Shown here: piece by piece, positions 6,456-55,252 of the stretch
How positions within the stretch are numbered: position 1 is the first letter of the stretch
Layout: each line of letters opens with the position of its first letter
Assembly (NCBI GenBank): GCA_964453405.1
Contig: CAYVOF010000002.1
Location: 10,825-74,824, forward strand
DNA length: 64,000 nucleotides
Source: an uncultured Candidatus Saccharibacteria bacterium
Lineage (GTDB): Bacteria > Patescibacteriota > Doudnabacteria > UBA920
Direction: 5' to 3'
Position numbers and translations under genes: made by a program
The notes under the pieces: model-generated
Databases searched by the model: none
Told to the model about the DNA's origin: nothing
What the model saw: the letters and a program-made list of their open reading frames with translations, nothing else

Positions 6456-6524
6456 TTATATTTATTTGTAGTTTTTTTGTTTGTGATTTCTTTCCTGTTT
6501 TTTGGTTATTTTCCGCTAAACTGT

Positions 6525-6565: not shown

Positions 6566-6595
6566 AAGAAATTTATAAAGGACCGATTAAAGATC

Positions 6596-7297: not shown

Positions 7298-7314
7298 AAG
7301 GGTATTCGCACCAG

Positions 7315-8577: not shown

Positions 8578-8583
8578 TTTCGC

Positions 8584-33187: not shown

Positions 33188-33300
33188 TAAAGTCCAGAGA
33201 TTTTGTTATAAAGCGAAATCATCAGCGCACAGCCGTAGCTCGCAAAGCGAGCGTAACGGCGTAGCGGTGCAGATTGAGCGATAACAAATCTCTGGACTTA
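33188..33300. repeat. GC-rich palindromic intergenic element, copy A
   Basis: About 20-bp AT-rich inverted arms (taaagtccagagattttgttat / ataacaaatctctggactta) flanking a GC-rich core containing gctcgcaaagcgagcg. Confidence 0.6.
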
Positions 33301-33330
33301 ATAAAAAATCCTACAAAAGTAGGATTTAAT

Positions 33331-34608
33331 TTATTTCTGATAATCATGCATGGTCAGCTGCGCTTCGACCTGCTTAATGCTTTCGATTACTACTGCAACC
33401 ACAATCAGCAAGCCGGTTCCGCCAAAGGTTAAAGCTTTAGTACCAGTCCAAGTTTGCAAGATAAATGGCAAGATGGCAATCAAACCTAAGAATAAAGATC
33501 CAGGCAAGGTAATGCGGTTCAAAACTTTGTACAAGTAATCCGCAGTCTGTTTTCCTGGACGAATCCCAGGCACAAATCCCCCACTACGTTGCATGTTCTC
33601 AGCAACTTCATCAGGATTTACAACAATATTTGTGTAGAAATATGTAAACACCACTACCAGTACAAAGTAAGCGATGCCATACCACATACCTTGGTTGTTG
33701 GTGAAATCAATAGCGCTTTGCGCAAAGTGAGCAATCGCTGCAGTTTTAGCGTGTAAAAAGAACTGCGCAATAATCGCTGGGAATAACAGCAAAGAAATTG
33801 CAAAAATGATTGGAATTACACCAGCTTGGTTAAGGCGTAAAGGTAAGAATGAATTCACTCCCCCAACCTGACGATCACCACTCATACGTTTAGCATACGT
33901 AACAGGCACGTTACGCTGGGCCTCTGTCACTAGTACCACACTAGCAATAACAATTAAGCCGACGATAACGAATCCAATAATAGTTGGTAACTGGCTTGGG
34001 TCGTATAATTGAATCAACGAACCAATGCTGTTTGGTAACTGGGAAACGATTCCTGCAAAAATAACTAATGACACACCATTACCAATGCCGTATTCAGAAA
34101 TAATTTCACCGATCCACATCACCAACATTGTGCCAGCAGTTACAGTTAACAAAGTTAAGAACCATTGAAAAGGAGAAAATGTTCCAAGTAGTTCGGCACC
34201 ACCTTGGCTTTGTAATAAGCGGATGGTTCCAAAACCAGATAATACTGCTAAAGGAATAGTTAAGAAACGAGTGTACTGGTTAATTTTGACGCGGCCAGCT
34301 TCTCCGCTTTCTTTTTGTAATTCAGTAAGAGAAGGCACCACCATTGTTAATAACTGCATAATAATCGACGCAGTAATATAAGGACCTACTCCAAGCATGG
34401 CAATAGAAAAGTTCTTTAAGCCGCCACCGGAGAAAACATTTAATAAGTTTAAAAATTGATTGCTTTCAAAAAAGGCTTTTAACCCAGAAACACTAATTCC
34501 TGGAATTGGGATATGTGCCAAAACGCGAGTTAACAATAGTAAAATCACCACCATCATAATTTTCCAGCGGAGATCTTTAGTTTTCCAAATTAAACTAATT
34601 TTATTCAT
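33331..34608 (-). CDS. secY: Preprotein translocase subunit SecY
   Basis: 425 aa with 10 TM; typical SecY N-terminus and conserved loops. Confidence 0.95.
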   Translation of the reverse strand: MNKISLIWKTKDLRWKIMMVVILLLLTRVLAHIPIPGISVSGLKAFFESNQFLNLLNVFSGGGLKNFSIAMLGVGPYITASIIMQLLTMVVPSLTELQKESGEAGRVKINQYTRFLTIPLAVLSGFGTIRLLQSQGGAELLGTFSPFQWFLTLLTVTAGTMLVMWIGEIISEYGIGNGVSLVIFAGIVSQLPNSIGSLIQLYDPSQLPTIIGFVIVGLIVIASVVLVTEAQRNVPVTYAKRMSGDRQVGGVNSFLPLRLNQAGVIPIIFAISLLLFPAIIAQFFLHAKTAAIAHFAQSAIDFTNNQGMWYGIAYFVLVVVFTYFYTNIVVNPDEVAENMQRSGGFVPGIRPGKQTADYLYKVLNRITLPGSLFLGLIAILPFILQTWTGTKALTFGGTGLLIVVAVVIESIKQVEAQLTMHDYQK

Positions 34609-34644
34609 ATTTGTATTATACCCGAATCGGGTTTATTTAGCACT

Positions 34645-35079
34645 TTACTTTACACTACCACCTGCGGCTTCGATAGAAGCTTTGGCTGTAGCGGACACAG
34701 GCACAGCAACTACAAGCTTACGTTTGAGTTCACCCTTAAGGATTTTTACCTTCTTTACACCATCATCAATGATGCCGTTAGCTATTAAGCAGTTTAAGGT
34801 TACTTCGGTGCCGTCAGCAAGCACATTTAACAAGTCCAATTTAACAGCAAACGCGTTTGGAGCCAAGCTCTTAAACCCACGCAATTTACCGATCTGGCGA
34901 ATCAATGGTTGACGTCCACCTTCAAATCGCGCTGGAGACTTAGAGTGACCAGTACGAGCTTTTTGTCCTTTAGCACCACGAGTAGAATATGTACCGTGAC
35001 CACTACCAATACCGCGACCAACAACTTTGCGGCGCTTTGTAGCTTTAGGGTGACGTTTTAATTGATGTAATTTAATCAT
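34645..35079 (-). CDS. rplO: 50S ribosomal protein L15
   Basis: RRKVVGRGIGSGHGTYSTRGAKGQKAR motif. Confidence 0.9.
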   Translation of the reverse strand: MIKLHQLKRHPKATKRRKVVGRGIGSGHGTYSTRGAKGQKARTGHSKSPARFEGGRQPLIRQIGKLRGFKSLAPNAFAVKLDLLNVLADGTEVTLNCLIANGIIDDGVKKVKILKGELKRKLVVAVPVSATAKASIEAAGGSVK

Positions 35080-35098
35080 ATATTTAATGGTTGAGAAT

Positions 35099-35173
35099 AA
35101 ATTTATTTGCTAAGAGAACAGTTTGCGAGCGCACGAGCGAAGCGAGGAGCGCTGTTCTCGTGCAAATAAATTT
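35099..35173. repeat. GC-rich palindromic intergenic element, copy B, occupying the usual L30 (rpmD) slot
   Basis: About 23-bp arms (aaatttatttgctaagagaacag / ctgttctcgtgcaaataaattt) around the core tttgcgagcgcacgagcgaagcgaggagcg; it overlaps the rpsE stop codon. Confidence 0.6.
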
Positions 35174-35672
35174 AGGCTCGACTTTTTAATATTTCTTCTT
35201 TGCTGCGCATCATTTTAAAAGCTTCGAAGGCAGCACGAACATTATTGGTCTTGTTATTAGAACCAATCATTTTACTAATTACGTTCTTAACACCAGCCAT
35301 ATCTAATACACTACGAACTGCACCACCAGCGATTACACCAGTACCAGGACGAGCAGGAATCATTAACAATTTACTAGACTTGTATTTAATATTAACCTGA
35401 TGAGGAATTGTATCGTTTACAATTGGTACCACAATCATGCTCTTTTTAGCCGCATTAACTGCTTTGTTAATAGCTTCGGTAACATCCATACCTTTTCTTA
35501 AACCAATACCAATTTTACCTTTGTGATCACCAATAACGATAAGTGCGCGAAAACGCATACGCTTTCCACCACCAGTTACACGGGTGACACGTTTAACCTC
35601 AACCAACTTTTGGTCGAATTCACGGGCCTCTTGGCCTTCTCTTGGATTGTTTCTACGTTGTCGTTTTTCCAT
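35172..35672 (-). CDS. rpsE: 30S ribosomal protein S5
   Basis: Conserved S5 dsRBD and C-terminal domain. Confidence 0.9.
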   Translation of the reverse strand: MEKRQRRNNPREGQEAREFDQKLVEVKRVTRVTGGGKRMRFRALIVIGDHKGKIGIGLRKGMDVTEAINKAVNAAKKSMIVVPIVNDTIPHQVNIKYKSSKLLMIPARPGTGVIAGGAVRSVLDMAGVKNVISKMIGSNNKTNNVRAAFEAFKMMRSKEEILKSRA

Positions 35673-35686
35673 AAAATTAAATTAGT

Positions 35687-36040
35687 TTAGAATTGTAACC
35701 CAGCTTCGCGAGCTGCTTCTGCTAATGCTTTAATACGACCATGATACTTATAACCACTACGGTCAAATACTACTGCTTTAACACCTTTTGCTACTGCTTT
35801 GTCAGCGATATCCTTACCTACTAAGCCAGCTTGTTCAACTTTATTGCCTTTAGCTTTTAGATTTACACTTGAAGTAGCAGCAATTGTCTTACCAGTAACA
35901 TCATCAATAACTTGTGCATAGATTTGAGAGTTGGATCGAAACACGCTTAACCGAGGACGTTGTTCTGTACCGCTAATTCGGCTGCGAACGCGACCCTTGC
36001 GAAGTTTGTGCTTTAAAATTTTGTGCTTCTGTTGATTCAT
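35687..36040 (-). CDS. rplR: 50S ribosomal protein L18
   Basis: Sequence similarity and position in the spc operon. Confidence 0.9.
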
Positions 36041-36060
36041 ATATTTAAATTATCTGGAGA

Positions 36061-36642
36061 TTATTTACCGACGGCTTTAACAACTTTACCTGCTTTACGC
36101 AAAATAGTTTCATCACTGTAACGAATCCCTTTACCTTTATAAGGTTCTGGCTTTTTTAATTCGCGAATATTAGCAGCAACTTGGCCAACTAAATGCTTAT
36201 CAATTCCAGAAAGAGTTACTGTAGTTTGGTACTGAGCAATAGTTACTTTAGCTGGGTCTTTTTCTACCTTAACCTGAATACCTTCTGGAATTGGAAAATC
36301 AATAGCATGAGAAAAACCAAGATTCAAAACCAAAGTTTGACCACGCATCTCAGCTTTAAAACCAACGCCAACAATATCCAACTGCTTAGAAAAACCAGTA
36401 GTTAGTCCATCAACCATATTCTGTACCAAAGCTCGGGACAATCCCCAAAGAGCTTTTTCTCGCTTGTCTTCTTTTTTAGCAACATCAACAGTAAGTTCGT
36501 TGTCTTTAAGCGCAACAAGAACCTTTGGATGGATATCCAACTCTAAAGTACCTTTACTACCTTTGATAGTGAGATGCTTGTCTTTAAGCTCGGCGGTAAT
36601 GCCTTGCGGTAAGATGACTGGTTTTTTTCCTATTCTGCTCAT
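36061..36642 (-). CDS. rplF: 50S ribosomal protein L6
   Basis: Sequence similarity and operon position. Confidence 0.9.
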   Translation of the reverse strand: MSRIGKKPVILPQGITAELKDKHLTIKGSKGTLELDIHPKVLVALKDNELTVDVAKKEDKREKALWGLSRALVQNMVDGLTTGFSKQLDIVGVGFKAEMRGQTLVLNLGFSHAIDFPIPEGIQVKVEKDPAKVTIAQYQTTVTLSGIDKHLVGQVAANIRELKKPEPYKGKGIRYSDETILRKAGKVVKAVGK

Positions 36643-36660
36643 ATATGTATTATTTAAAAA

Positions 36661-37053
36661 TTACCAGACTTGGCAAATTACTTCGCCACCAATGCGATCT
36701 TTACGAGCGCGCTTATCTGTAACTAGACCTTTAGAAGTAGAAACAACTGTAATTCCAAAACCACCGTTAGTACGAGGAATCTTAGTCACTGGCATGTAAA
36801 TGCGCTGACCTGGAGTGCTCACGCGCTTAACACCAGAGATTACAGGATTACCAGATTGATCATACTTTAAGTTGATTTGGAGCATTTTAATGCGGCCTGG
36901 AAGTTCATTTACACCAGAGATAAAACCTTCTTCTAAAAGAACTTGAGCTAAGCTGTGTTTAAACTTAGAGTAAGGCATAACTAAATCAGCCTTGTTGCTA
37001 GCTAAGGCATTGCGGATTCTGGTTAACATGTCGGAAATTGGATCTGTGTACAT
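36661..37053 (-). CDS. rpsH: 30S ribosomal protein S8
   Basis: MYTDPISDMLTRIRNA N-terminus. Confidence 0.9.
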   Translation of the reverse strand: MYTDPISDMLTRIRNALASNKADLVMPYSKFKHSLAQVLLEEGFISGVNELPGRIKMLQINLKYDQSGNPVISGVKRVSTPGQRIYMPVTKIPRTNGGFGITVVSTSKGLVTDKRARKDRIGGEVICQVW

Positions 37054-37070
37054 AGTAGTTTAGTTATTTC

Positions 37071-37265
37071 TTACCAAGAGGCTTTTGATACACCTGGAAG
37101 TTCTCCACGGCTGGCTAATTCTCTAAAACAAATACGGCAAAGGGAGAAGTCTCTCATAAAAGCAGCTTTTCGACCACACTTAAAACAACGACGAATCACC
37201 CGAGTGGAAAATTTCGGCTTTGTCAGACTTCTGGTTGCTTTTGCGATTAGAGATTTTTTTGCCAT
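37071..37265 (-). CDS. rpsZ: 30S ribosomal protein S14, type Z (zinc-binding)
   Basis: 64 aa with CxxC...CxxC. Confidence 0.9.
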
Positions 37266-37274
37266 TGTTGTTAA

Positions 37275-37814
37275 TTAATCTTTGAAGGGAAACTTCATTT
37301 GCTTTAATAATTCGTAAGCTGGTTCATCTTTACCAGCAGAGGTTACAATCGTTACTTGAAGACCGAAAATATGTTCGAGAGCTTCTTGAGAAATTTCTGG
37401 GAATACTAAATGTTCTTTAAGTCCAAGGTTGTAATTACCACGTCCGTCAAAACCTTTTTTAGATACACCACGGAAATCTTTAATTCTTGGCATAGCCACG
37501 CTGATCAGTTTATCTAGAAAGTCGTACATGCGAGGACCGCGGATAGTAACAGTTAGACCAACTTGCTGACCTTCACGAACTTTGAATCCAGCGACCGACA
37601 GACGAGCCATAGTTTCGACAGGAGCTTGCCCAGCCAACTTTGTGAAGTCTTTTTTAATTGACTCCATAAATTTGTTGTCTTTGAGGAAACGTCCGACACC
37701 GATATTAAGGTTAACCTGTTTGATTTTAGGTACGGCCATAATATTAGTGTAACCAAATTGCTTTTGCAAAGCAGGAGCTATCTCTTTATTATATTGTGTT
37801 TGTAATCGGTTCAT
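37275..37814 (-). CDS. rplE: 50S ribosomal protein L5
   Basis: The MNRLQTQYNKEIAP start lies at 37814; the longer track ORF overlaps rplX. Confidence 0.85.
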   Translation of the reverse strand: MNRLQTQYNKEIAPALQKQFGYTNIMAVPKIKQVNLNIGVGRFLKDNKFMESIKKDFTKLAGQAPVETMARLSVAGFKVREGQQVGLTVTIRGPRMYDFLDKLISVAMPRIKDFRGVSKKGFDGRGNYNLGLKEHLVFPEISQEALEHIFGLQVTIVTSAGKDEPAYELLKQMKFPFKD

Positions 37815-37818
37815 ATAA

Positions 37819-38142
37819 TTAGATGGCCTTTCCTGACTGCTTAGCAATTCGCTGCTTAGTGCCATTTTCTAAGATTGAATAACCCACGCGCGTTGGCTTG
37901 CCAGAGTGCGGGTCGATCAACTGTACCTTAGAAGAAGCCATTGCTCCAGCAAAGACAATCTTTTGACCAGGCTGACCTGCTCGGCGGCTGCGTTCAAACT
38001 TGGTGTGCATGTTGACGTTTTCGACTACTACTTTAGAAATAGTAGGAATAACACGCAACACTTTACCAGTTTTGCCTTTATCTTTGCCAGACAATATCTT
38101 AACGGTATCGCCTTTCTTAATTTTTAACTTGTTATTGGACAT
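37819..38142 (-). CDS. rplX: 50S ribosomal protein L24
   Basis: KOW motif KIKKGDTVKILSGKDKGK. Confidence 0.9.
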   Translation of the reverse strand: MSNNKLKIKKGDTVKILSGKDKGKTGKVLRVIPTISKVVVENVNMHTKFERSRRAGQPGQKIVFAGAMASSKVQLIDPHSGKPTRVGYSILENGTKQRIAKQSGKAI

Positions 38143-38162
38143 AAATATATTAAATTACTCTA

Positions 38163-38534
38163 CTAGATTACCTCTGGTGCTAATGATGCGATCTTAGCAA
38201 ATCCAGCGTCGCGGACTTCTCTTGGAATTGGTCCAAAGATACGAGTACCACGTGGTTCGCCTTTTTCTTTATCTACTAATACACCAGCGTTCTCATCGAA
38301 GCGAATGTAAGAACCGTCTTTGCGACGAATTTCTTTTTTAGTGCGAACAATTACTGCGTAGATCTTATCACCTTTTTTAACCTGACCATTTGGTGCGGCT
38401 TGGCGAACAGACCCAGCGACAATATCCCCAACTCGTGCAAAGCGACGTTTGTTTTTTCCGTTCACTGCGAACAAGTTGACGACTTTAGCGCCAGTGTTAT
38501 CTGCGATTTTAATGTAAGATCTAATTTGTAACAT
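38163..38534 (-). CDS. rplN: 50S ribosomal protein L14
   Basis: [18 protein letters not shown]-terminus. Confidence 0.9.
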
Positions 38535-38589
38535 AAATTTATTAAGGGTTTATTGAATAGTTTAGTGCGGCTCACTGCCCGCGCCCGCC

Positions 38590-38886
38590 TTATTCTGTAG
38601 GCTTTACTTCTGGCTGACGACCTCCAACTGCGCCATCCTTGATAACAGTAAACTTTTTATCACGGCTCATCGGACGAATAGCCTCGATAGTGACCTTATC
38701 ACCGATCTCGCAGCTATTGTCTTCATCATGAGCTTTGTAGCGATAAGACTTAGTATAACTCTTATGGTACTTAGGGTGACGCTTTAAAATGTCAACCTTA
38801 ACCACGACAGTTTTATCCATCTTATTTGACACTACGGTGCCGGTCATCTGTTGTTTAGTAATTTGCTCTGTCATTTTCTTAGACAT
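38590..38886 (-). CDS. rpsQ: 30S ribosomal protein S17
   Basis: Sequence similarity and operon position. Confidence 0.85.
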   Translation of the reverse strand: MSKKMTEQITKQQMTGTVVSNKMDKTVVVKVDILKRHPKYHKSYTKSYRYKAHDEDNSCEIGDKVTIEAIRPMSRDKKFTVIKDGAVGGRQPEVKPTE

Positions 38887-38909
38887 ATAAATATAATTAG
38901 TTGCGCGGC

Positions 38910-39107
38910 TTAGCGACTAGCTCCCGAATTAGCTCTTAGAAAGGTCATGATGCGGGCGATATCCTTTTTAACCATTGAGAGTTGATTAGTGTTTTTAACC
39001 TGACCAAGCTTGATCTTCATCTTGAGGTTTTCGCGCTTTTCTTGCAAAGTTGTTAACTCCTTGCGCAAAGCTTCGACTGATTGTGACTTAACTTCTGAAT
39101 ATTTCAT
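38910..39107 (-). CDS. rpmC: 50S ribosomal protein L29
   Basis: 65 aa in the expected operon position. Confidence 0.85.
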   Translation of the reverse strand: MKYSEVKSQSVEALRKELTTLQEKRENLKMKIKLGQVKNTNQLSMVKKDIARIMTFLRANSGASR

Positions 39108-39108
39108 C

Positions 39109-39516
39109 TTATTGCTTGATTAGGAATTTAGTCTTTACGGGTAATTTGTGAGCAGCTAAACGCATGGCTTCGCGAGCAGCAACTTCTGGAACACCGTCCA
39201 TTTCGAACAAAATACGACCAGATTTAACAACTGCTACGAAGTGAGATACAGAACCCTTACCACTACCCATTACAGATTCGTTACCGTGATCAGTCATTGG
39301 CTTATCTGGGAAAATACGAATCCAAATTTTGCCACCACGTTGAACACTACGAGTCATAGCTCGACGAGCAGCTTCGATTTGGCGAGCAGTTACAAAACTG
39401 CCTTCCATAGCTTTAAGGGCATAGCTTCCAAAAGCAATAAAATTGCCAGAAGTTGCTTTACCTTTGTTATGACCGCGATGATGTTTGCGGTGTTTGACCT
39501 TTTTTGGAATTAACAT
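39109..39516 (-). CDS. rplP: 50S ribosomal protein L16
   Basis: [16 protein letters not shown]-terminus. Confidence 0.9.
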
Positions 39517-39548
39517 ATTCTTGTTCTAAATAAACGTTATCTAATTAT

Positions 39549-40208
39549 TTAAGTGATTATTGGCGCCTTACCGGTGGCAAAAATGTCTCCGCGATAAATC
39601 CAGACTTTAATACCAATTGTTCCGTAAGTAGTATGAGCAGTTGCTTTAGCGTAATCAATATCAGCGCGCATAGTATGCAAAGGAATCTTACCACTAGACA
39701 AATGTTCAGTACGAGCAATTTCTGCTCCGTTCAAACGTCCACCGATAGAAACTTTTACACCTTTAGCACCAGCTTGCATGATCTGTTCTAGTGATTGCTT
39801 CATTAAGCGACGAAAAGCTACGCGGCGTTCGATCTGTTCGGCAATACCATTTGCAATTACTTGCGCATGCATATTAACGTCACGGATTTCTTCGATATTT
39901 ACTTTAAGTTCACTCTTGATCTTAAGCTGCTTTTTAACACGCTTCTTAAGTTCTTCGATTCCCGCGCCACCTTTACCGATAATTAAACCAGGTTTAGTAG
40001 TGCGAATACCGATAGTGATAGTGCCGTCGTTAAGACGTTCGATATCGATACGCGCTAGACCAGCTTTGCGAAGGTGCTTTTCGAGATATTCTCGGATCGC
40101 TACGTCTTCTTTAAGCTGCTGGACGTAATTGCCTTTAGAGTACCACTTGGACTTCCAAGTGTCGGTAATCTTAAGTCTAAATGAAGTTGGATTAATCTTA
40201 TTTCCCAT
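39549..40208 (-). CDS. rpsC: 30S ribosomal protein S3
   Basis: MGNKINPTSFRL start and KH domain. Confidence 0.9.
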   Translation of the reverse strand: MGNKINPTSFRLKITDTWKSKWYSKGNYVQQLKEDVAIREYLEKHLRKAGLARIDIERLNDGTITIGIRTTKPGLIIGKGGAGIEELKKRVKKQLKIKSELKVNIEEIRDVNMHAQVIANGIAEQIERRVAFRRLMKQSLEQIMQAGAKGVKVSIGGRLNGAEIARTEHLSSGKIPLHTMRADIDYAKATAHTTYGTIGIKVWIYRGDIFATGKAPIIT

Positions 40209-40213
40209 ATTAT

Positions 40214-40867
40214 TTATTTAGTAGTGTTATCGCTATCTGTTTTTGCTGGAATTGAATCTGCTTCGTTTTCGTGATGAACTTCCTTAGCTTTTGGAGCTTC
40301 TTCAATTTTTTCTTCCTTGCCCATTTCTGGTAAACCAAGTGAACCTTCTACAGTTTGAACTGGCTTGGATTCTTTCTTAGTTTTTGGAACTTTTGCAGCT
40401 GCTTTTTTAGCTTTGATAGCCTTTTCTTCTAGAACCACATTTACGTGACTCATCTTGTGACGGATTACAAAAGCACTACCACGGGCACGCGGAAAGGCAC
40501 GTTGGAGAACTGGCCCCATGTCGCAGGTAATGCTCTTAATAACTAAACCATCACGATTTAAAGAAAAATTATGTTCAGCGTTTGCTACAGCAGATTGTAA
40601 AAGTTTCGCAATCATTGGTGCACCTTTTTTATTGGTGAACTGTAATTGAACCAAGGCATCGCCAACGCGCATGTTTTTAACCATGTTGGTAACCAAGCGA
40701 AGCTTACGTGGAGAAATTCTAAGATTACGAGCGTGAGCACGTACCATTTGCTTTGGCTTTTCTACCACAGCTGTCGCAGTCTTTGAGGCAACCTTAACAG
40801 GAGCCTTGCTAGCTGGGGCTTTTGTAGTAGTCTTAGTATTCTTTTTTGCAACAGTTTTATCTGCCAT
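40214..40867 (-). CDS. rplV: 50S ribosomal protein L22 with long Lys/Ala-rich N- and C-terminal extensions
   Basis: L22 core (AHARNLRISPRK...) inside a 217-aa protein. Confidence 0.85.
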   Translation of the reverse strand: MADKTVAKKNTKTTTKAPASKAPVKVASKTATAVVEKPKQMVRAHARNLRISPRKLRLVTNMVKNMRVGDALVQLQFTNKKGAPMIAKLLQSAVANAEHNFSLNRDGLVIKSITCDMGPVLQRAFPRARGSAFVIRHKMSHVNVVLEEKAIKAKKAAAKVPKTKKESKPVQTVEGSLGLPEMGKEEKIEEAPKAKEVHHENEADSIPAKTDSDNTTK

Positions 40868-40903
40868 ATAATTGATTAGAAATTGAGGAAATTATTTGAG
40901 AAA

Positions 40904-41191
40904 TTATTTAGAAGCGGCTTCTGCTTTTTGCTCTTTAGCAAGCTTACCGCCATGACTAATGAACTTACGAGTTGGAGAGAATTCACCTAACTTATGTCCG
41001 ACCATGTTTTCGGTTACAAAAACTTCGAGATGGGTTTTACCATTGTGCACCATAAAAGTATATCCAACCATTTCTGGAGAGATTGCACAATCGCGAGCCC
41101 AAGTTTTGATTTTGTCGCCTGGCTTACCAGCTACAACTTTCTTCATCACTCGAGGATCTATAAATGGACCTTTTTTTAAACTTCTAGACAT
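40904..41191 (-). CDS. rpsS: 30S ribosomal protein S19
   Basis: [13 protein letters not shown]-terminus. Confidence 0.9.
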
Positions 41192-41231
41192 AAATTAAAT
41201 TAATTAACGTTTCTTAGATTGCGCTTAGCGC

Positions 41232-42077
41232 TTATCTCTTCTTAGTTCTTCGCTTAACAATAAACTTAGACGAACCTTTCTTCTTATCACGAGTCTTAAC
41301 ACCGAGCGCATGCTTACCCCAAGGAGTCTTAGGATATTTCATACCAATCGAGTTACGACCTTCACCACCACCATGAGGGTGATCAACTGGGTTCATTACT
41401 TTACCGCGAACTTGTGGTCTCCAGCCCATGTGGCGCTTACGACCTGCGGTTCCGATGCGAACATTCATCCAGTCACTGTTTGAAATTTGACCGATACTCG
41501 CTGCGCAAGTTTCGCGAACTTTACGAATTTCACCGGATGGTAGCTTTAGAAAAGCATAACCAGCTTCGATGTTCTGTAACAATACGCTATTACCAGCACT
41601 ACGAGCAAGCTTCCCACCACGACCTGGAATTAATTCTACGTCATGGATTAAGCTTCCCACAGGAATACTTGCAATTGATAAACGATTACCAGGATGAATT
41701 TCGGCTGTTTCACTATAAATAACTTTATCGCCGACTTTTAGACCCATAGGAGCAAGAATCAATCGCTTTACACCGTCATTATAATCGATTAACGAAATAA
41801 ACGCTGTGCGAGTTGGATCATACTCAATGGTCTTAACTGTTCCGGGAATATCTTTTCGATCGGCACGAACAAAGTCCACAATGCGAACTTTCTTTAGTGC
41901 GCCGCCGCCACGATGGCGGACAGTGATCTTCCCAGAATTATTACGACCAGCACTATTAGCTTTGCTCATTATTAAAAACTTTGGAGTTTTCTCTTTTTTG
42001 TTAAGCACTGCTGCATAATCGGTTACGCTAGATAAACGACGGCCTGGTGTAGTTGGTTTGTATAATTTAACTGCCAT
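41232..42077 (-). CDS. rplB: 50S ribosomal protein L2
   Basis: 281 aa with a conserved C-terminal GGGEGR region. Confidence 0.9.
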   Translation of the reverse strand: MAVKLYKPTTPGRRLSSVTDYAAVLNKKEKTPKFLIMSKANSAGRNNSGKITVRHRGGGALKKVRIVDFVRADRKDIPGTVKTIEYDPTRTAFISLIDYNDGVKRLILAPMGLKVGDKVIYSETAEIHPGNRLSIASIPVGSLIHDVELIPGRGGKLARSAGNSVLLQNIEAGYAFLKLPSGEIRKVRETCAASIGQISNSDWMNVRIGTAGRKRHMGWRPQVRGKVMNPVDHPHGGGEGRNSIGMKYPKTPWGKHALGVKTRDKKKGSSKFIVKRRTKKR

Positions 42078-42082
42078 ATATA

Positions 42083-42502
42083 TTAACTTGGTTCTACAAT
42101 ATCAATTTTCTTGCTTTCAGGTGTTAATGTGATCATTGCCTTTTTAAAACCGCTGCGCATTCCTTTGCTGCGACCAAACTGACGGCTTTTTCCACGAACT
42201 TGAATCATATTGATGTTAGCGATCTTTACACCATACATTTTTTCTACTGCTTGCTTAACTTCAATCTTGTTGAGTTTGCCATGAATAGTAAAAATGTATT
42301 GGTTAAAGCGACCTACGAATCCAGCTTTTTCGGAAACACGAGGAACAATTAAACCCTTGCTACCAAGACCACTATGAACAACATCCACCATTGCTTTTGG
42401 GGTTTGGTCATCCGAAGTCGCAGTTGGTGCAGCAGCTTTGTCAGCTACAGGAGCATCAACTACAGTTTCGCCAGTATTCTCTTTTTTAGAAAAAATTGCC
42501 AT
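42083..42502 (-). CDS. rplW: 50S ribosomal protein L23 with N-terminal extension
   Basis: L23 core (YQYIFTIHGKLNKIEVKQAVEKMYGVKI) in a 139-aa protein. Confidence 0.85.
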   Translation of the reverse strand: MAIFSKKENTGETVVDAPVADKAAAPTATSDDQTPKAMVDVVHSGLGSKGLIVPRVSEKAGFVGRFNQYIFTIHGKLNKIEVKQAVEKMYGVKIANINMIQVRGKSRQFGRSKGMRSGFKKAMITLTPESKKIDIVEPS

Positions 42503-42528
42503 TTAATTAGTTTAGTATAGAGGGATAA

Positions 42529-43287
42529 TTATTCTTGATCTTCTTTTTTAGTTGCAGGTTTAGCTTCTGCCTTAGCTGGAGCTTTTTCTGCCTTTGCTTC
42601 TACTTCTTTCTTTGCAGATGGCTTAGCCTTTGCTACTTTTGCAGTTTCTTTTAAGTAAGTCTTTTCGATTACTTGTAAGCTATCTTTAGTTACCAACATT
42701 GCGTCAGCCTTTAATATATCGGTGATGTTCAAGCTTGTTGCAAATGCAGTGTTAATTTCTTGTAAGTTGCGAGAAGCGCGAATTAAGTTGTCATCTTTTT
42801 TAGGAAGAACCATCATTTGCTTGTTACCCAAAGTTGGTAATTTAGCATGAAAGGCCTGCATAACTTTGATGAATTCTTTTGTCTTAGGAGCTTGTAGATT
42901 GATTCCATCAATAATGATGAATTTTCCGTCGCGAGCTTTGTCAGACAAAGACATGAATAATGCTTTAGTCTTAGCTTTCTTGTTGATCTTTACACTCCAG
43001 TTACGATCAGAAGTTGGACCAAAGGTGACTCCACCGTGGCGCCAGATAGGGCTACGAGTAGAACCAACGCGAGCGCGTCCAGTTCCCTTTTGCTTCCAAG
43101 GCTTTTTACCGCCACCACTAACTTCGCCGCGAGTTTTGGTGTTAGCCAAACCCTTACGAGCATTGTTAGCTTGCGCACGGACGCTTTCGGCCATTAGATG
43201 CAAAGATGGCTTAACGTCAAAGATTTGATCGCTAACTTCCATTTCGCCAACGGCTTCGGCATTTTGATTGTAAACTTGAATTTTCAT
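42529..43287 (-). CDS. rplD: 50S ribosomal protein L4 with Lys/Ala-rich C-terminal extension
   Basis: L4 core plus a roughly 50-aa KA-rich tail. Confidence 0.85.
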   Translation of the reverse strand: MKIQVYNQNAEAVGEMEVSDQIFDVKPSLHLMAESVRAQANNARKGLANTKTRGEVSGGGKKPWKQKGTGRARVGSTRSPIWRHGGVTFGPTSDRNWSVKINKKAKTKALFMSLSDKARDGKFIIIDGINLQAPKTKEFIKVMQAFHAKLPTLGNKQMMVLPKKDDNLIRASRNLQEINTAFATSLNITDILKADAMLVTKDSLQVIEKTYLKETAKVAKAKPSAKKEVEAKAEKAPAKAEAKPATKKEDQE

Positions 43288-43290
43288 AGA

Positions 43291-43962
43291 CTATTTCTTC
43301 TTTTTAGGATCTTCGACAACAGCGACGAATAATGGTTTAGTCACACCAGTAGTAGAAATGCGAATCATTCCATTACGAGTTCCTGGGACTGCACCTTTAA
43401 TCAAAATTAAATTCTTTTCAGCGTCAACATCAACAACTTGTAAATTTTTAACAGTTACGTTTTGAGTTCCCATATGACCGGACATGCGATGACCCTTGTT
43501 AACATGTTGAGGATATCGTTGACCGATAGAACCAACACTACGAGGTCGGTTATGACCATGACTCATTGGAAAACCGTGAAAACCATGACGCTTCATAGCA
43601 CCAGCAAAACCACGGCCTTTCATTACACCAATTACATCTACCATTTCGCCAATTTCGAATTGAGCAACTTCCACCTTTTGGCCAACTGTAAAGTCTTGTG
43701 GATTTTCTACACGAAATTCTACAAACTTTCCAAAGTTACCTAAATCTTTTTGGTGGCCTGCTTTTGCTTTGTTTGCGTTCTTGCTTCCAGCAATACGAGA
43801 GTTAACACCAACTTGAACAGCATTGTAGCCGTCTTTAGAATCAGCGGTCTTAACTTGAGTTACGATCATTTCTGGAGCTTGAACAACAGTAGCAGGAATA
43901 ACCTCGCCATTTTCTGCGAAGTAGGTTGTCATATTTAACTTTTTACCAACAATGAATTTCAT
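43291..43962 (-). CDS. rplC: 50S ribosomal protein L3
   Basis: Sequence similarity and position after rpsJ. Confidence 0.9.
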   Translation of the reverse strand: MKFIVGKKLNMTTYFAENGEVIPATVVQAPEMIVTQVKTADSKDGYNAVQVGVNSRIAGSKNANKAKAGHQKDLGNFGKFVEFRVENPQDFTVGQKVEVAQFEIGEMVDVIGVMKGRGFAGAMKRHGFHGFPMSHGHNRPRSVGSIGQRYPQHVNKGHRMSGHMGTQNVTVKNLQVVDVDAEKNLILIKGAVPGTRNGMIRISTTGVTKPLFVAVVEDPKKKK

Positions 43963-43975
43963 ACGGTTTTGATTG

Positions 43976-44080
43976 GTCTTGTCAGGTATGAGTATTTGTT
44001 ACTGAAACAGTCTGCGAGCGCCAGCTTGCGAAGCAAGCGAGAGCGCTGTTGAAGAAACAAATACTCATACCTCCAAGACT
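43976..44080. repeat. GC-rich palindromic intergenic element, copy C, between rpsJ and rplC
   Basis: Arms ggtatgagtatttgtt...aacaaatactcatacc (extended by gtcttg / caagac) around the core cagtctgcgagcgccagcttgcgaagcaagcgagagcgctg, which is related to the copy B core. Confidence 0.6.
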
Positions 44081-44246
44081 TCAAGTCTTATTAAATAAAA
44101 AAATGTGGCTAATCACCACATAAAAACAATTCATCTATTTATTGTCGCAGGCGACAAAACGATGCTTTGCTTGTATTTGGCGAATAGTTATCTAAGCTTA
44201 GTAGCTGTTTGGGCTGAAAAAAGTTTAGAACAAATTCACACTATCT

Positions 44247-44802: not shown

Positions 44803-45666
44803 ATGAAACCAACTATTTACCAGGTAGGCGCTCCAACCAGTGAAGTTAGGCGTCTTGAGAATTTGGAGTGGCCAAATGAAGTTAGCAAAAGTATCCTCGA
44901 AGCACTTCATGCTGGAATCCCAATCACTTCCCTACTCGATGCAGGAGCCGGCCCAGGAACACAAATGGCGGAACTGTGTTATAAACTCGATATTGAGTAC
45001 AGAGCATTTGACAATGGCAAAATGTCGACCCCAGTCGGCGACGTTTATATGGCTGACATTCTTAAAAGGAATCTGTGGGATAAAGGCCTTCTAGGCTCTT
45101 CGGTTGTTGCCGACGTATTGACCGTTGGACTAGACTCATTTGGTGACCGTAATTACGATCTGCGCGATAACAGTCTTCCTGATATTGTCCACATGCGGTT
45201 CGTACTTATGCACTTGCCAGCTTGTGAATGGGCTATGGCAATTATGAATATGCTCATGCTAGCACAGAAACGATTAATTTTGATGGAATACGATTGGCGA
45301 ACTGTTAAAAGTTCATCGCACCCCACATTAATCGAAGAAAGTGTAAAAACTTTTGAACGATTTGCCAAGTTGGTAAATCTCAACCTCTACGCCGGCCGGA
45401 ATCTAACAAACGAGGCAAATGGATTTGGTTACCCTGTAACTGAATGCGTATATTCCAGAGCTGAAGGTCATTATGCGCAAGAGCTGGCCTCTAAACTCCC
45501 GACAGGAATCGAGACGGCGAGGAAAATTGGCGAGATCGATCTGGCAAATGAGCTGCAAAATATAATGGATACTATCCTAGGATATGGAAATGGGTTAACA
45601 CTCGTTCCAGCAGAAATTCACGCCGTTGTGATCGATACATCAAAGGAACGCATTCGACGCGTTTAA
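44803..45666 (+). CDS. Class I SAM-dependent methyltransferase
   Basis: Motif I LDAGAGPGTQ. GC content is somewhat higher than in neighbouring genes. Confidence 0.65.
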   Translation: MKPTIYQVGAPTSEVRRLENLEWPNEVSKSILEALHAGIPITSLLDAGAGPGTQMAELCYKLDIEYRAFDNGKMSTPVGDVYMADILKRNLWDKGLLGSSVVADVLTVGLDSFGDRNYDLRDNSLPDIVHMRFVLMHLPACEWAMAIMNMLMLAQKRLILMEYDWRTVKSSSHPTLIEESVKTFERFAKLVNLNLYAGRNLTNEANGFGYPVTECVYSRAEGHYAQELASKLPTGIETARKIGEIDLANELQNIMDTILGYGNGLTLVPAEIHAVVIDTSKERIRRV

Positions 45667-45686
45667 ATTATGGTGAATATTCACCA

Positions 45687-45717
45687 CTCCGGAACTAAAC
45701 GTTCCGGAGTTTTTTAT
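45687..45717 (+). terminator. Rho-independent terminator
   Basis: ctccggaac taaac gttccggag followed by T6. It is preceded by a perfect 14-bp palindrome GGTGAATATTCACC at 45672-45685. Confidence 0.7.
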
Positions 45718-45721
45718 TTTC

Positions 45722-45750
45722 CAAAAAAAAGAAGCAATTACTTGCTTCTT
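45722..45750 (-). terminator. Rho-independent terminator for the minus-strand 156-aa gene
   Basis: gaagcaa ttac ttgcttc followed by a T-run on the minus strand. Confidence 0.6.
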
Positions 45751-45755
45751 AGATG

Positions 45756-46226
45756 CTAGCTATGATTAACCATAGCTTTTAGAACTTCGACTGAATTAAC
45801 TTGTGTAGGAATAGCAATCTCTACACGCTTATCACTATCTCCCCCACCATCCAAAACTGGATCAATCGGTGGTTCACTTATAACTAAACAATACTGCAAG
45901 TCGTGTGGATTTCCATTAATCTCTTCAGCATCGAGATGAATTTCAAAGCCCAGCGCCTCTTCTAAAGATTCAAGATATGTTTGCAAGACTTTAAAATCTG
46001 CTGCGGATAACTTTTCTAAAATAATTTCCAGATTGCGATTAGTGATGGTTATGCGGTCAACACCAAAACGAAACAATCGTAGCAAATTATTATCGGACAG
46101 TTCTTCTAGCTGTTGTAATATTTGAATGACGATTAACGTAATCGGAATGGAGCTACGTAGCATCCGCTGTATTGTATCGACACTCTTCCACTGAACTCTT
46201 CTCATATAATGTTCAATTTCCTCCAT
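45756..46226 (-). CDS. Hypothetical protein (156 aa)
   Basis: ORF bounded by terminators; no recognisable motif. Confidence 0.45.
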   Translation of the reverse strand: MEEIEHYMRRVQWKSVDTIQRMLRSSIPITLIVIQILQQLEELSDNNLLRLFRFGVDRITITNRNLEIILEKLSAADFKVLQTYLESLEEALGFEIHLDAEEINGNPHDLQYCLVISEPPIDPVLDGGGDSDKRVEIAIPTQVNSVEVLKAMVNHS

Positions 46227-46312
46227 TTTAAACTTAGACCCATTTTATCTAATCAAGTATTCTTCGTCAAAGAAAAAAGCGCTACCTCGATAGCACTTTT
46301 TTTAAAATAATT

Positions 46313-46672
46313 TTATAAACTACACTCTTGGTATAAAGTTCGAGTGTCCGGATTCGTCATAGTTTGACCTGTGACCTTTGCGTTATAAACGGAACATGTA
46401 TCTGTTGCAGGGATCCAGAACGTAGTTACTATGACATCTGAAGACACTGCTGATGCAGAACCAGAAGTAGTTGGCTTAATTGACCAGCTTCCACCAGTTT
46501 GAGATTTAATTGCCCAACTCCTACCAATATTAAAGTTTGCTGATGAAGGTGTGCCTTGAATATCTGCAAACGGACCGACATGGTAATAACGTGATGTCCA
46601 AAAAAAACCGACCAATGCACCAATGACTAGCATCAGTACTATTAGCATCATATTTTGTTGATTTTTTATCAT
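46313..46672 (-). CDS. Small signal-anchored, Cys-containing protein, paralog 2 (119 aa)
   Basis: Shares N-terminal TM plus the R.Y..GP.A..QGTPSSAN module with the adjacent gene; its own terminator lies downstream. Confidence 0.55.
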   Translation of the reverse strand: MIKNQQNMMLIVLMLVIGALVGFFWTSRYYHVGPFADIQGTPSSANFNIGRSWAIKSQTGGSWSIKPTTSGSASAVSSDVIVTTFWIPATDTCSVYNAKVTGQTMTNPDTRTLYQECSL

Positions 46673-46744
46673 TATAATTTAACAGTTAATTAATACCTTA
46701 AGTATGAGGCTTTTAAAAAAATCTGCCAAACGAGTTATCCCCAA

Positions 46745-46790
46745 ACAAAAAACTCCCCCCATATAAGAAGGGAGTTTTTTTATATTTTTA
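46745..46790 (-). terminator. Rho-independent terminator after paralog 1
   Basis: aaactccc ... gggagttttttt hairpin with T-runs on both strands. Confidence 0.6.
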
Positions 46791-47087
46791 ATTACCAGTT
46801 CCACCTGGGGTACTTGACCAATTCTCAGTCCAGTAATCACGACCATTGACCCGGCGGTGACATCTCATGTCTTCGCCCAGAGTCCCTGCGGCGCCACTAC
46901 TATCAAAATAACATAGATCTCCTGGTCGATGACCAGCCGACCCTTGTAAATTAGCAGAAGACGGTGTCCCCTGCAAACCAGCTAATGGTCCTGCTCCATA
47001 ATTACGAGCAGTAAAAGCCCAACCAATGAAGATGCCGATTGCGATCATTCCAACACCAATCAGGAGATCTTTTTGTTTCTTTTCCAT
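46788..47087 (-). CDS. Small signal-anchored, Cys-containing protein, paralog 1 (99 aa)
   Basis: N-terminal 47 aa paralogous to the 46313-46672 gene; two cysteines in a divergent C-terminal part. Confidence 0.55.
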   Translation of the reverse strand: MEKKQKDLLIGVGMIAIGIFIGWAFTARNYGAGPLAGLQGTPSSANLQGSAGHRPGDLCYFDSSGAAGTLGEDMRCHRRVNGRDYWTENWSSTPGGTGN

Positions 47088-48384: not shown

Positions 48385-48647
48385 TTGATACCTTTCTGTT
48401 CTATAAATTCGGTTCTAGCCCCGAGATACCCTCTCTACTTCCCCTTATCATCCTGATCGGGACTGGCTAGCTAAAGCGGGCTAAAGCTGGCGATTCGGGA
48501 AAGAAGGGAGGGTTTCTCTTTTTTTCGCAAGGAATCCAGGTGACGAGAAAAGAGATTTATAGTTTTTTAATGATTTTAAAATTGGCGACGGAGACGCGCG
48601 CCAATCACAATGTATTGTAAGTGGTTTTGGGTGAGTTTGTCAAGGGT

Positions 48648-48699: not shown

Positions 48700-49149
48700 A
48701 TGAATATAACATTTAGACCAGTTTACAAAATTATTGTGCTGATGATCTTGATGCTTTTTGTCGGTTCGGCCACTGGTTGCAAATCGGATGCCAAAATTGC
48801 TGAAGCTAAGGTGGAAAAGGAAATAGAAAGGGAACAAAAGTTAACCCAGCTTAAAACGTACTCAGACGAAACTTGGACAGTAAAGCAAATTAATTTGCAA
48901 AACGATTCTTCTATAACAAATGATAATACATACGCTGTGATTATCGAAAACCCGAAGGGCGAGCGTAGGTATCTCAAGGCTGTAGAATCAAACCGTAGAG
49001 ACTATGGCAAATTACAAAGTTGGATGCTGGCCCACGATGACCAATTAAAATTTGCCATTAATGAATCAGTTTCTGTATTTAATTCTGAAGGTGACTTGCC
49101 CTATCTAATACTCGTGGAGAGAAATGGTAAAGTTATGACTCCTCATTAA
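48700..49149 (+). CDS. Putative lipoprotein (149 aa)
   Basis: Signal peptide with lipobox ATGC; SD AGGAGG. Confidence 0.55.
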   Translation: MNITFRPVYKIIVLMILMLFVGSATGCKSDAKIAEAKVEKEIEREQKLTQLKTYSDETWTVKQINLQNDSSITNDNTYAVIIENPKGERRYLKAVESNRRDYGKLQSWMLAHDDQLKFAINESVSVFNSEGDLPYLILVERNGKVMTPH

Positions 49150-49166
49150 CGAGGAGTTTTTTATTG
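49137..49166 (+). terminator. Rho-independent terminator
   Basis: actcctc attaac gaggagt followed by T6. Confidence 0.6.
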
Positions 49167-49239
49167 ACTAACTTCTTTAAAATCTATACAATTCAAAACC
49201 TAAGATAAACTCTTAGATAAAAATATAAGGAGGTGTAAT

Positions 49240-49479
49240 ATGAATTACCCAATATTCAAACAGCGATGGGTTAAAACCTTGCCTGATGGCAAAGTTGCAG
49301 AAGTGTACTCTATACACCTCACCCCAGAATCAGCAATTGAATTTATCGAACAGCAAAGACTCCAGCCAACATACCCAGAATATATAGCTACTGGTCATCC
49401 CGTGCCAGATATGGTCAACGAAGAAATTTTTAATTACTTAACTACGGCCAAAAATTGGTGGACAGAAGAAGAACATTAA
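49240..49479 (+). CDS. Hypothetical small protein (79 aa)
   Basis: SD AAGGAGG 7 nt upstream; bidirectional terminator hairpin at 49496-49525. Confidence 0.5.
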   Translation: MNYPIFKQRWVKTLPDGKVAEVYSIHLTPESAIEFIEQQRLQPTYPEYIATGHPVPDMVNEEIFNYLTTAKNWWTEEEH

Positions 49480-49525
49480 GTAAATCAGAATTAACAAAAC
49501 GCACCCGTTTGGATGCGTTTTTATT

Positions 49526-50010
49526 TTATATGTCGTCAAAGTTGGGTTTGATTTCTTCGTCCGCTTCTGTTTCGACTAAAGGTTGAGCTAATGGCATACC
49601 AAAACTTGGATCCATTACTTCTTCTCGCAAGTCATATTGAGGTGGCTCTTGTCGGCCGTAGGGTTGGTTGATAAACAAATCTTTGGCGCGTTTAGAAAGA
49701 ATATTTTTTATCGGCGTCGGCATGATTACCGAATGAGGTGCTGTGTTAGGTACATCATCTGCAATAGTTTCTAGATTAATGTTTGTAGTGTCCACGATAT
49801 CGGTGAGCTGGGCTTCTAATATTTCACGGTTAATTTTTTCTGGGTCTGGACCAGTAGGAGTTGAACTTGCTACGCCAGTCAAAACCGTACCACCAGCCAT
49901 GCGCTGATATTCAGCAAAGGACAAAAATACACCCTTCACTTTCCCATCTTCGCCAACAATCATTACTTTTCCATCTTGCCCTGCAAATTGTATTAAATCT
50001 TTAAGGTTCA
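49526..50010 (-). CDS. Hypothetical protein with a Phd/YefM-antitoxin-like N-terminal ~50 aa and an acidic Pro-rich tail
   Basis: An N-terminal pattern (KVMIVGEDGKVKGVFLSFAEYQRM) resembles Phd/YefM. The ATG at 50010 lies 7 nt after a TTGCCA-17-TATAGT promoter, so the mRNA is likely leaderless; the track TTG start is at 50047. Confidence 0.4.
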
Positions 50011-50137
50011 TATTTAATACTATAGTCGGCTCAGTCAATATTGGCAAATAAATATGGGTTAAGCTTGGGATACTTACAAATCGCTTTACAAATCCAAATA
50101 GATTATCTACAAAGTAAAGTCTAAATAAGGAGGAAAA

Positions 50138-53892: not shown

Positions 53893-53947
53893 CTTTAATT
53901 GCTGGGGGCACTCGCGCTGCGCATGTTACGCCGCGCGCCCAATTAAT
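53893..53947. repeat. Possible additional GC-rich palindromic element (copy D) in the rpsL leader
   Basis: 7-bp AT-rich arms (ttaattg / caattaa) around the GC-rich hairpin gggcactcgcgc...gcgcgccc. Confidence 0.35.
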
Positions 53948-55006: not shown

Positions 55007-55065
55007 TAGCAATTAAATCTTATAGCGGCTGTTTAGTTATCTAGCCAGTCGCTTAGATCTAACGC

Positions 55066-55087
55066 TTGTACATTTACAAAAAGCAGA
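55066..55087. repeat. Left 18-20 bp inverted repeat flanking the GC-rich cargo gene
   Basis: tacatttacaaaaagcag is nearly identical to the reverse complement of 56079-56100 (catatttacaaaaaagcag). Confidence 0.55.
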
Positions 55088-55252
55088 GATTGTCTCGCTA
55101 ATTAAGTCCCCCAGCAAAAACCGTAACATATTTATTTAGTACGAACTTTTACTGAGGGCTTAAACTAGCGAGGCAACTCGTGAAATTTTTTGGCACCGGC
55201 CCCAGGCCACTGTCAATTCGTTACTCACTTCAGAATATAGGAGATAAAAAAG

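Follow-up and report, generated by a model that had tools for sequence, protein, structure and literature searches.

Three long hairpins, termed A, B, and C, lie in spacers of the ribosomal-protein gene cluster of the window, by which we mean the whole 64-kb stretch of contig CAYVOF010000002.1 that was analyzed here. The window is a compact genome segment with a GC content of ~40%. Its − strand carries the S10–spc cluster (rpsJ, rplC ... rpsE, rplO, secY) as well as rpsL–rpsG–fusA–tuf; no L30 gene is present between rpsE and rplO, and the cluster terminates at secY. The nearest L15 in a collection of species-representative genomes was 72% identical and came from metagenome-assembled genomes of uncultured Candidatus Saccharibacteria. 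For this reason, the window was taken to be that of a Saccharibacteria-like bacterium of the candidate phyla radiation (CPR). L15 relatives with up to 94% identity were found in a large protein collection. CPR bacteria, Saccharibacteria among them, have small, compact genomes in which mobile DNA is usually considered scarce, and the S10–spc cluster is the most conserved bacterial gene block, on which phylogenomic trees and genome binning rest.

For comparison, operon loci of relatives (L numbers) were fetched via their L15 proteins, all of them centered on rplO. In a rough relatedness tree built on L18, S5, and L15, the window groups with L040, L041, and L030/L036 (90–93% identity) and next with L042, L044, and L043 (84–86%). 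The sister genome is L040, at 92.7% identity by the same three proteins; the L15 of L042, which figures repeatedly below, is 83% identical to that of the window.

Element A (33190–33299), downstream of secY, is a 110-nt hairpin with AT-rich arms of 19–20 nt (AAGTCCAGAGATTTTGTTAT and ATAACAAATCTCTGGACTT) around an asymmetric, GC-rich core that contains the invariant GCTACG on the − strand, read as CGTAGC on the + strand. Element B (35098–35174), in the rpsE–rplO spacer, is a 77-nt hairpin with an outer stem of 13 bp (TAAATTTATTTGC and GCAAATAAATTTA) and an inner stem of 8 bp (GAGAACAG and CTGTTCTC); it is partly decayed, its central mini-hairpin being shortened. Element C (43984–44072), in the rpsJ–rplC spacer, is an intact 89-nt hairpin of the same subfamily as B, with perfect 17-bp arms (AGGTATGAGTATTTGTT and AACAAATACTCATACCT) and the − strand core ACAGCGCTCTCGCTTGCTTCGCAAGCTGGCGCTCGCAGACTGT. 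The elements are thus 77–110 nt in length with inverted arms of 13–20 bp, and none has an open reading frame (ORF) of its own. Perfect stems run for 13–21 bp and interrupted ones for 30–40 bp.

RNA folding of both strands was compared with that of 200 dinucleotide shuffles. Fold z-scores on the − strand were −8.0 for A, −5.4 for B, and −7.8 for C, and on the + strand −9.5, −7.3, and −7.2, respectively; in no case did any of the 200 shuffles fold as well. Predicted RNA folding energies were −52 to −58 kcal/mol for A, −32 to −45 kcal/mol for B, and −50 to −54 kcal/mol for C, and DNA energy parameters gave the same picture. When the whole 64 kb was scanned for stability in 120-nt windows with a step of 20, A ranked first, C second, and B within the top five. 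The hairpins are real and far beyond chance. An earlier sequence-only reading of the window had placed hairpin copies at these three sites, and folding of each copy bore this out, with z between −5.4 and −9.5 throughout.

At the level of sequence, GCGAGCG is present in all three elements. B and C gave a Smith–Waterman score of 60 (shuffles, 17 ± 3.6) and A and C a local alignment score of 44 (shuffles, 19 ± 4); the local alignment of A with B was not significant against shuffles. Good alignments were obtained only between + strands, which gives A, B, and C one polarity within the window. An asymmetric, GC-rich core of ~43 nt is common to B and C (79% identity), and the sequence that the two share can be written TATTTGyTA...ACAGTyTGCGAGCGC...GCGAAGC...GAGCGCTGTT. 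A resembles C in the arm (GAGATTTTGTTA against GAGTATTTGTTA) and in the region of the central mini-hairpin (AGCTCGCAAAGCGAGCG against AGCTTGCGAAGCAAGCG), and the rest of its core is its own. Judged by these alignments, A represents a separate, distantly related subfamily (A-type), whose resemblance to B and C (C-type) is limited to the region of the central mini-hairpin and an arm of the ATTTGTTA type. The sequence-only reading had ascribed one design to all three copies: GCGAGCG and the alignable cores of B and C are as it described, but its second motif, GAGCGCTG, is confined to B and C within the 64 kb, and the core of A is distinct.

A covariance model, R1, was trained on C and two C-type copies from L042, with B held out. 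It recovered B at 49.9 bits (E = 4.5e-10, − strand), and across 375 kb of window and relatives it gave, beyond B, only a weak partial match to A (E = 0.12). These results bear on the view that the hairpins are three unrelated ribosomal-protein leaders, alike only as hairpins. Positions upstream of rplC and rplO and beside secY would suit autoregulatory leaders, and a real conserved leader does exist in the rpsJ–rplC spacer. Nevertheless, the shared core of B and C, the recovery of B by a model that had not seen it, the presence of the same core in different spacers of L042, its absence from the closest relatives, and its variable orientation make this view very improbable.

In every copy, a core of ~40–70 nt surrounds a mini-hairpin with a GAA or AAA loop, and AT-rich inverted arms lie outside it. 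Between copies, arms are 46–70% and cores 62–93% identical. The highest core identity, 93% (40 of 43 positions), is between C and the L042 copy in the rpsE–rplO spacer, i.e. a different spacer, and two differences in the mini-hairpin of this pair are compensatory (GCTTGC/GCAAGC versus GCTCGC/GCGAGC). Core pairs from the same site or the same genome are 72–79% identical. Copying between sites is the simplest account. For the A-type, the − strand consensus is CGCTvAAyC...GCTACG...(mini-hairpin)...CTGkGC....

Further copies were found in related genomes; their lack, along with a lack of conserved structure, was what the sequence-only reading had named as telling against a family. Both subfamilies recur, only in S10–spc–secY spacers, among loci that are all centered on rplO. 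C-type cores occur twice in L042, once in the rpsE–rplO spacer with the site and polarity of B and once in the rpsJ–rplC spacer, at the site of C, with the core inverted relative to the operon. A-type copies were seen in seven lineages, in either of two positions: downstream of secY, the site of A, in L041 and L002/L003, and in the rplO–secY spacer in the L030–L039 group, L043, and L042, where the core is again inverted relative to the operon. The window's own rplO–secY spacer is 36 nt long and has no element. Each examined genome has at most one A-type copy, and in none is secY flanked by such copies to either side at once.

Orthologous sites in close relatives are in many cases empty. In the sister genome, L040, the sites on its contig all lack an element, with spacers of 11 nt between rpsE and rplO, 25 nt between rplO and secY, and 99 nt downstream of secY. 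L030/L036 and L043 are without B and C but have an A-type copy in the rplO–secY spacer, and in L041 A is present and B absent. The rpsE–rplO site is empty in L030, L036, L040, L041, L043, and L044. Filled and empty orthologous sites among close relatives are what is looked for in MITEs (miniature inverted-repeat transposable elements). As the copies were found in many independent assemblies, they are not an assembly artifact. A has no connection to the SDR gene beside it: L045 has an SDR gene after secY without an element, and in L041 the element stands in a different gene context.

The arms of C are extended by a 6-bp − strand stem, GTCTTG (43976–43981) and CAAGAC (44074–44079), such that C occupies the loop of a host hairpin that ends 13 nt upstream of the rplC ATG (43960–43962). 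Relatives without the element keep only a 5–6-bp hairpin there, immediately before CAATCAAAACCGTATG (rplC), with the stems GTCCAC/GTGGAC in L030/L036, GTCTC/GAGAC in L043, and GTCCC/GGGAC in L003; the host hairpin of L042, GTTTGG/CCAAAC, also encloses a C-type element. As an observation on the host hairpin itself (L030 ~1237–1260), five lineages have five different complementary stems, i.e. the stem covaries. B directly follows rpsE, whose stop codon (35172–35174) forms the outermost 3 bp of the B stem. TA...TA flanks can be drawn for B, C, and the L042 rpsE–rplO copy and cannot be drawn for A or the L042 rpsJ–rplC copy; with arms this AT-rich, TA is uninformative.

In the direction of transcription, A comes right after the intrinsic terminator of secY, which a terminator scan located on the − strand at 33306–33327 (AAATCCTAC TTTT GTAGGATTT, then a T-run). 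At the other end of A begins a promoter-like site (TTTACT-17-TAGAAT, 33191–33163) that would serve the SDR gene. Lying between a terminator and the next gene's promoter-like site, A is probably hardly transcribed with the operon. The outer arms downstream of secY are alike in A, L041, and L044 (AGnCC..AGAG...), and the apex in L044 is different; this pattern suggests that an older terminator hairpin carries the A-type core at its apex.

The leader between rpsJ and rplC (44081–44246, 166 nt) adjoins C. In all relatives whose contig covers the region (L042, L030, L036, L043, and L003) it is 74–79% identical to that of the window. Spacers of the operon are thus not generally unstable, and the patchiness is specific to the elements. 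The sequence-only reading had also offered structured regulatory RNAs of the leader kind as an option. This option finds no support: the closest relatives lack the elements and orientation varies, whereas the true leader beside C is conserved.

Taken together, we consider it fairly probable that A, B, and C belong to a lineage-specific, non-coding, non-autonomous palindromic repeat family, MITE-like in kind, with the Correia element of Neisseria as its closest parallel. Of the options raised by the sequence-only reading, a selfish MITE- or REP-like (repetitive extragenic palindromic) element is the one favored, as different genomes have copies in different spacers, sites are found empty, and two copies are inverted. 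Gain, loss, and flipping of the family while ribosomal proteins diverge by 5–15% is the best-supported account. Copies would spread by being copied between intergenic spacers of the S10–spc–secY cluster within one Saccharibacteria lineage, would settle where insertion harms least (right after a stop codon, within the loop of an existing hairpin, or past a terminator), and would be lost by deletion. For flipping of the core, recombination between the two inverted arms is the simplest explanation; it would at the same time maintain the complementarity of arms that drift in sequence. The kinship of the copies, their hairpin structure, and their polymorphism in presence and orientation are shown, as is the lack of a partner enzyme within the 64 kb, whereas the mode of movement is inferred. 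If co-transcribed, B and C would add an interrupted double-stranded RNA hairpin of 30–40 bp to the polycistronic mRNA. The stems are long enough for RNase III, and processing by this enzyme, a further option of the sequence-only reading, is a plausible consequence for these two copies; RNase III might bind or cut the hairpin, or the hairpin might block an exonuclease. Any effect on the host is probably secondary and dispensable.

Several observations weigh against such a mobile family. Only three copies are present in 64 kb, and all known copies lie in or beside one operon, a restriction that may reflect sampling, as all loci were centered on rplO. No target-site duplication was established: TA flanks fit three of five copies, which is weak given the AT-rich arms. 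The arms are less conserved (46–70%) than the core (62–93%), whereas in a classical MITE it is the terminal repeats that are conserved. The 64-kb window yielded no transposase, integrase, or HUH enzyme, and exact-pattern scans of metagenome and viral collections gave only chance matches. Finally, the limit of one A-type copy per examined genome, always flanking secY, could point to a function for the host.

In the three C-type copies, 14–15 of the 29 predicted pairs have changed on both sides with pairing kept, and arms stay complementary although only 46–70% identical between copies. Stem covariation is no proof of selection on RNA, because arm-to-arm gene conversion in a DNA palindrome gives the same result. 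The copies could still be RNA modules that tune how strongly genes of the ribosomal-protein operon are expressed relative to one another, as processing, stability, or termination signals (RNase III sites, protective 3′ or 5′ hairpins, or attenuators), and are kept by selection on RNA structure. Such a role would fit hairpins of very high stability inside a highly expressed polycistronic unit or at its ends, the many compensatory stem changes, the terminator-like T-runs that follow the copies in L041, L042, and L043, the hairpins of unrelated sequence in the same spacers of more distant relatives, the single A-type copy beside secY, and the confinement of all found copies to this one cluster. 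It is unlikely all the same: the nearest relatives, with an otherwise collinear operon, lack the elements, copies face either way with respect to transcription, A lies between a terminator and the next promoter, the center of B has decayed, and gene conversion would also produce the covariation. The strand that folds better is, moreover, the same element strand in 11 of 12 copies, and in the window it is antisense to the mRNA.

This strand asymmetry belongs to the element. The element strand corresponding to the + strand of the window folds 2–15 kcal/mol better in the 11 copies, both inverted ones included, and the + strand is also the better folder with DNA parameters. On the better-folding strand, 7 of 11 copies have a C-GAA-G apical loop and two have C-AAA-G, bases mismatch as G-T and not as A-C, and A-type copies downstream of secY have a tandem G-A internal loop. 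Mini-hairpins of the d(GCGAAGC) type are unusually stable in DNA. That the better-folding strand is antisense to mRNA in the window speaks against a role of one particular strand within the operon mRNA; it is a hint that the element itself passes through a single-stranded stage or descends from a form that did. Part of the energy asymmetry may stem from the energy model's bonus for purine-rich loops. If real, the asymmetry points to a single-stranded DNA (ssDNA) or RNA stage and offers a possible route to the responsible enzyme.

The copies might be ssDNA elements like REPINs (REP doublets that form hairpins), of which one strand folds and is moved by a single-copy HUH enzyme (RAYT-like, Y1) encoded elsewhere in the genome. 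The intrinsic asymmetry (on which DNA parameters agree), the C-GAA-G triloop, and the tandem G-A mismatches all suit such elements, and the invariant top-strand CGTAGC of the A-type resembles the GTAG of REP sequences. REPINs form ssDNA hairpins with compensatory changes (PMC3116915). Size (~70–110 nt), a hairpin in ssDNA or mRNA, extragenic position, compensatory stem changes, better folding of one strand, and a non-autonomous makeup with no transposase inside are common to both. REPINs have two invariant ends with a variable spacer, whereas here it is the center that is conserved and the ends that vary; they number tens to hundreds per genome and have a flanking RAYT gene, whereas here copy number appears low and no RAYT/Y1 gene was found among the ORFs of the 64 kb scanned against Pfam. 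The C-type has no GTAG, and some of the asymmetry may be the purine-rich loop bonus. Taken with these points, a REPIN-like origin seems quite unlikely.

Returning to a MITE-like family, the closest described system is that of the Correia elements (CREE or NEMIS), which are inverted repeats with a directional conserved core, intergenic and often co-transcribed, with insertions that vary between strains and an mRNA hairpin that is an RNase III substrate (PMC2649163). The present elements resemble them in size (~70–160 bp), in the directional core within inverted repeats, in their intergenic, often co-transcribed position, in the insertion differences between relatives, in an mRNA hairpin that may be an RNase III substrate, and in AT-rich ends compatible with a TA target. 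They differ in that there is no sequence similarity (the published core ends CCGGTACGG and TCAGGACAA are not matched), the terminal repeats vary and the center is conserved, copy number appears low against ~100–250 per Neisseria genome, no TA duplication could be established, and the host has a reduced CPR genome.

Two other classes were compared. ERIC/IRU and other bacterial MITEs (RUP, BOX, and the Rickettsia palindromic elements) are imperfect palindromes of ~100–130 bp in transcribed intergenic regions. Such MITEs are present or absent at orthologous sites in either orientation and can affect mRNA stability. They have no sequence relation to A, B, and C, for which conserved terminal repeats, a target-site duplication, or a matching insertion sequence could not be shown. 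Autoregulatory leaders of ribosomal proteins (S10/L4, spc/S8) are likewise structured RNAs in spacers of the same operons, but they are conserved in position and orientation; the elements are neither, and they match no Rfam leader. Since conserved terminal repeats and a partner enzyme were looked for and not found, the elements were not assigned to a named family; they look like very small selfish mobile elements of a generally known sort.

At the Rfam gathering threshold, the window contained one tRNA only and eight related loci contained no match; at E ≤ 10, the surroundings of the elements gave only generic microRNA-hairpin matches far below threshold. The Rfam scan that the sequence-only reading had proposed therefore yielded no family for A, B, or C. 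Pfam scans of 40 window ORFs showed no transposase, integrase, HUH enzyme, or retron-type reverse transcriptase; an RVT_3/RNase_H match at 416–826 is an RNase HI-type protein. The exact B/C core pattern had no matches in viral contigs and two in metagenome contigs, both by chance (coding or high-GC DNA), and looser A- and C-type patterns in viral contigs gave none and one chance match. BLASTN-short of the elements against all related loci did not even link B with C, a method too insensitive for this purpose. Text searches of the literature for such elements in Saccharibacteria or Patescibacteria found nothing relevant.

Other known structures were tried and set aside. An integron attC site was rejected on the arms, which read 5′-..TTTGTTA ... 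TAACAAA..-3′ on both strands (GTT...AAC), the opposite of 5′-RYYYAAC ... GTTRRRY-3′, and there is no integrase. Signal recognition particle RNA, CIRCE, hammerhead, and retron candidates were dropped because there was no model match, the motifs were in the wrong arrangement, or a motif was found in one copy only; the hammerhead idea had rested on CUGAUGA in A, where no hammerhead model matched.

A weaker fourth copy had been suggested at 53893–53947, in the rpsL leader. This GC-rich inverted repeat, with 7-bp TTAATTG/CAATTAA feet, is not a member of the family: its fold is like that of shuffled sequence (z = −0.09, with 95 of 200 shuffles folding equally well or better), the core motifs were not found in it, and R1 had no match there at E ≤ 10. 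It may be an ordinary leader structure.

The leader between rpsJ and rplC has features of its own. On the − strand, a long-range helix (CTATTCGCC... with ...GGTGATTAG) is in competition with a terminator hairpin at 44103–44121 (ATGTGGTGATTAGCCACAT and then T7), and in this the leader looks like an attenuator between the two genes. The sole Rfam signal in it was a sub-threshold L20_leader match of 18.8 bits. Further along the operon, a hairpin stands right before a TATAAT box ~10–15 nt upstream of the secY start; it reads ACCCGATTCGGGT in the window (34620–34632) and (A)AGATGCCATC..GATGGCATCT in the rplO–secY spacers of L002, L003, L044, L045, L047, and L048. This arrangement suggests that secY is transcribed from a promoter of its own, with a leader of very short length.

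Structured inserts of other, unrelated kinds occupy the same spacers in more distant relatives, and in L048 spacers are enlarged at about a dozen junctions. A multi-hairpin family of ~130 nt (GGAAAGGGGAGG...CCCCTCCAA) occurs 3–5 times per operon in L003 and L048, with the form ..ACCTCCGGAAAGGGGAGGCAG-ACCGCGAAGCGGTC-...-CCCCTCCAA, usually behind a CCGAGTCGTC..GCGACGAGG hairpin. It contains paired motifs like anti-Shine–Dalgarno and Shine–Dalgarno sequences (CCUCC and GGAGG) and has no Rfam entry; its sites are ~5251, ~6211, and ~9841 in L003, ~6700 in L001, and 1776–1956, 4611–4860, 6569–6713, 7588–7780, and 10436–10627 in L048. A second hairpin family has the core CCTGTCACCGTA (stem-loop) TACGGCTCCAG and was located at 346–530 in L003, 7254–7392 and 8174–8422 in L048, 2570–2704 in L045, and 1209–1454 in L047. 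Its strand antisense to the operon folds better, by 14–24 kcal/mol in the four larger copies and by 4 kcal/mol in L048 7254–7392. In the rpsE–rplO spacer of L002 (~1890–1960), three hairpins (CCCGC-GAAG-GCGGG, ATCTCCTA..TAGGAGAT, and CCTGAA..TTCAGG) are closed by GTCAT/ATGAC into a cloverleaf-like structure; despite its tRNA-like look, no tRNA model matched in an Rfam scan of L002.

The elements of the window seem to exemplify a broader, undescribed tendency of the clade to accumulate structured elements in the spacers of the ribosomal-protein cluster. One could go further and propose a spacer mobilome of Saccharibacteria, in which several unrelated structured families (the A- and C-types and the two others) colonize the operon spacers, insert into hairpin loops, and have one preferred folding strand; we regard this as unlikely. 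Such elements would act as ssDNA, or as RNA from their own strand, with a sequence-specific conserved core. They would be moved by some enzyme, or pass from lineage to lineage through natural transformation with the flanking conserved genes as homology arms, or be co-opted as processing or termination modules in a regulator-poor genome.

Hairpin repeats that turn over this quickly provide an easily scored marker of recent divergence and recombination in uncultured lineages, and they caution against taking every large structured spacer of these operons for a regulatory leader. The elements also offer a tractable case for studying, in a minimal genome, the movement and flipping of palindromic repeats and the upkeep of their pairing, and for asking whether long hairpins in a polycistronic ribosomal-protein mRNA alter its processing.

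Some irregularities of gene content were noted along the way. Between rpsJ, tuf, and fusA (44803–47087 and 48700–50047), seven ORFs of 287, 156, 119, 99, 149, 79, and 173 amino acids interrupt the usual str–S10 arrangement; those of 119 and 99 amino acids have an N-terminal motif in common. Pfam was run on six of the seven, all but that of 79 amino acids; five were without a match and one had a weak methyltransferase match. In L043 (CP064996.1, a "complete" genome), many ribosomal-protein genes at 2866–9000 (L23, S19, L22, S3, S8, and others) are called as fragments, most likely through frameshift errors of long-read assembly.

Two further long hairpins are present elsewhere in the window. In the tuf leader (48401–48520), GAGATACCCTCTCTACTTCCC ... 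GGGAAAGAAGGGAGGGTTTCTC form a hairpin of about −45 kcal/mol, unrelated in sequence to A, B, and C and with no BLAST match in the fetched loci. At 55061–55180, between two + strand ORFs without a Pfam match, TTGTCTCGCTAATTAAGTCCCCCAG ... CTGAGGGCTTAAACTAGCGAGGCAA form a hairpin with an AT-rich center, which folds 8 kcal/mol better on the − strand.

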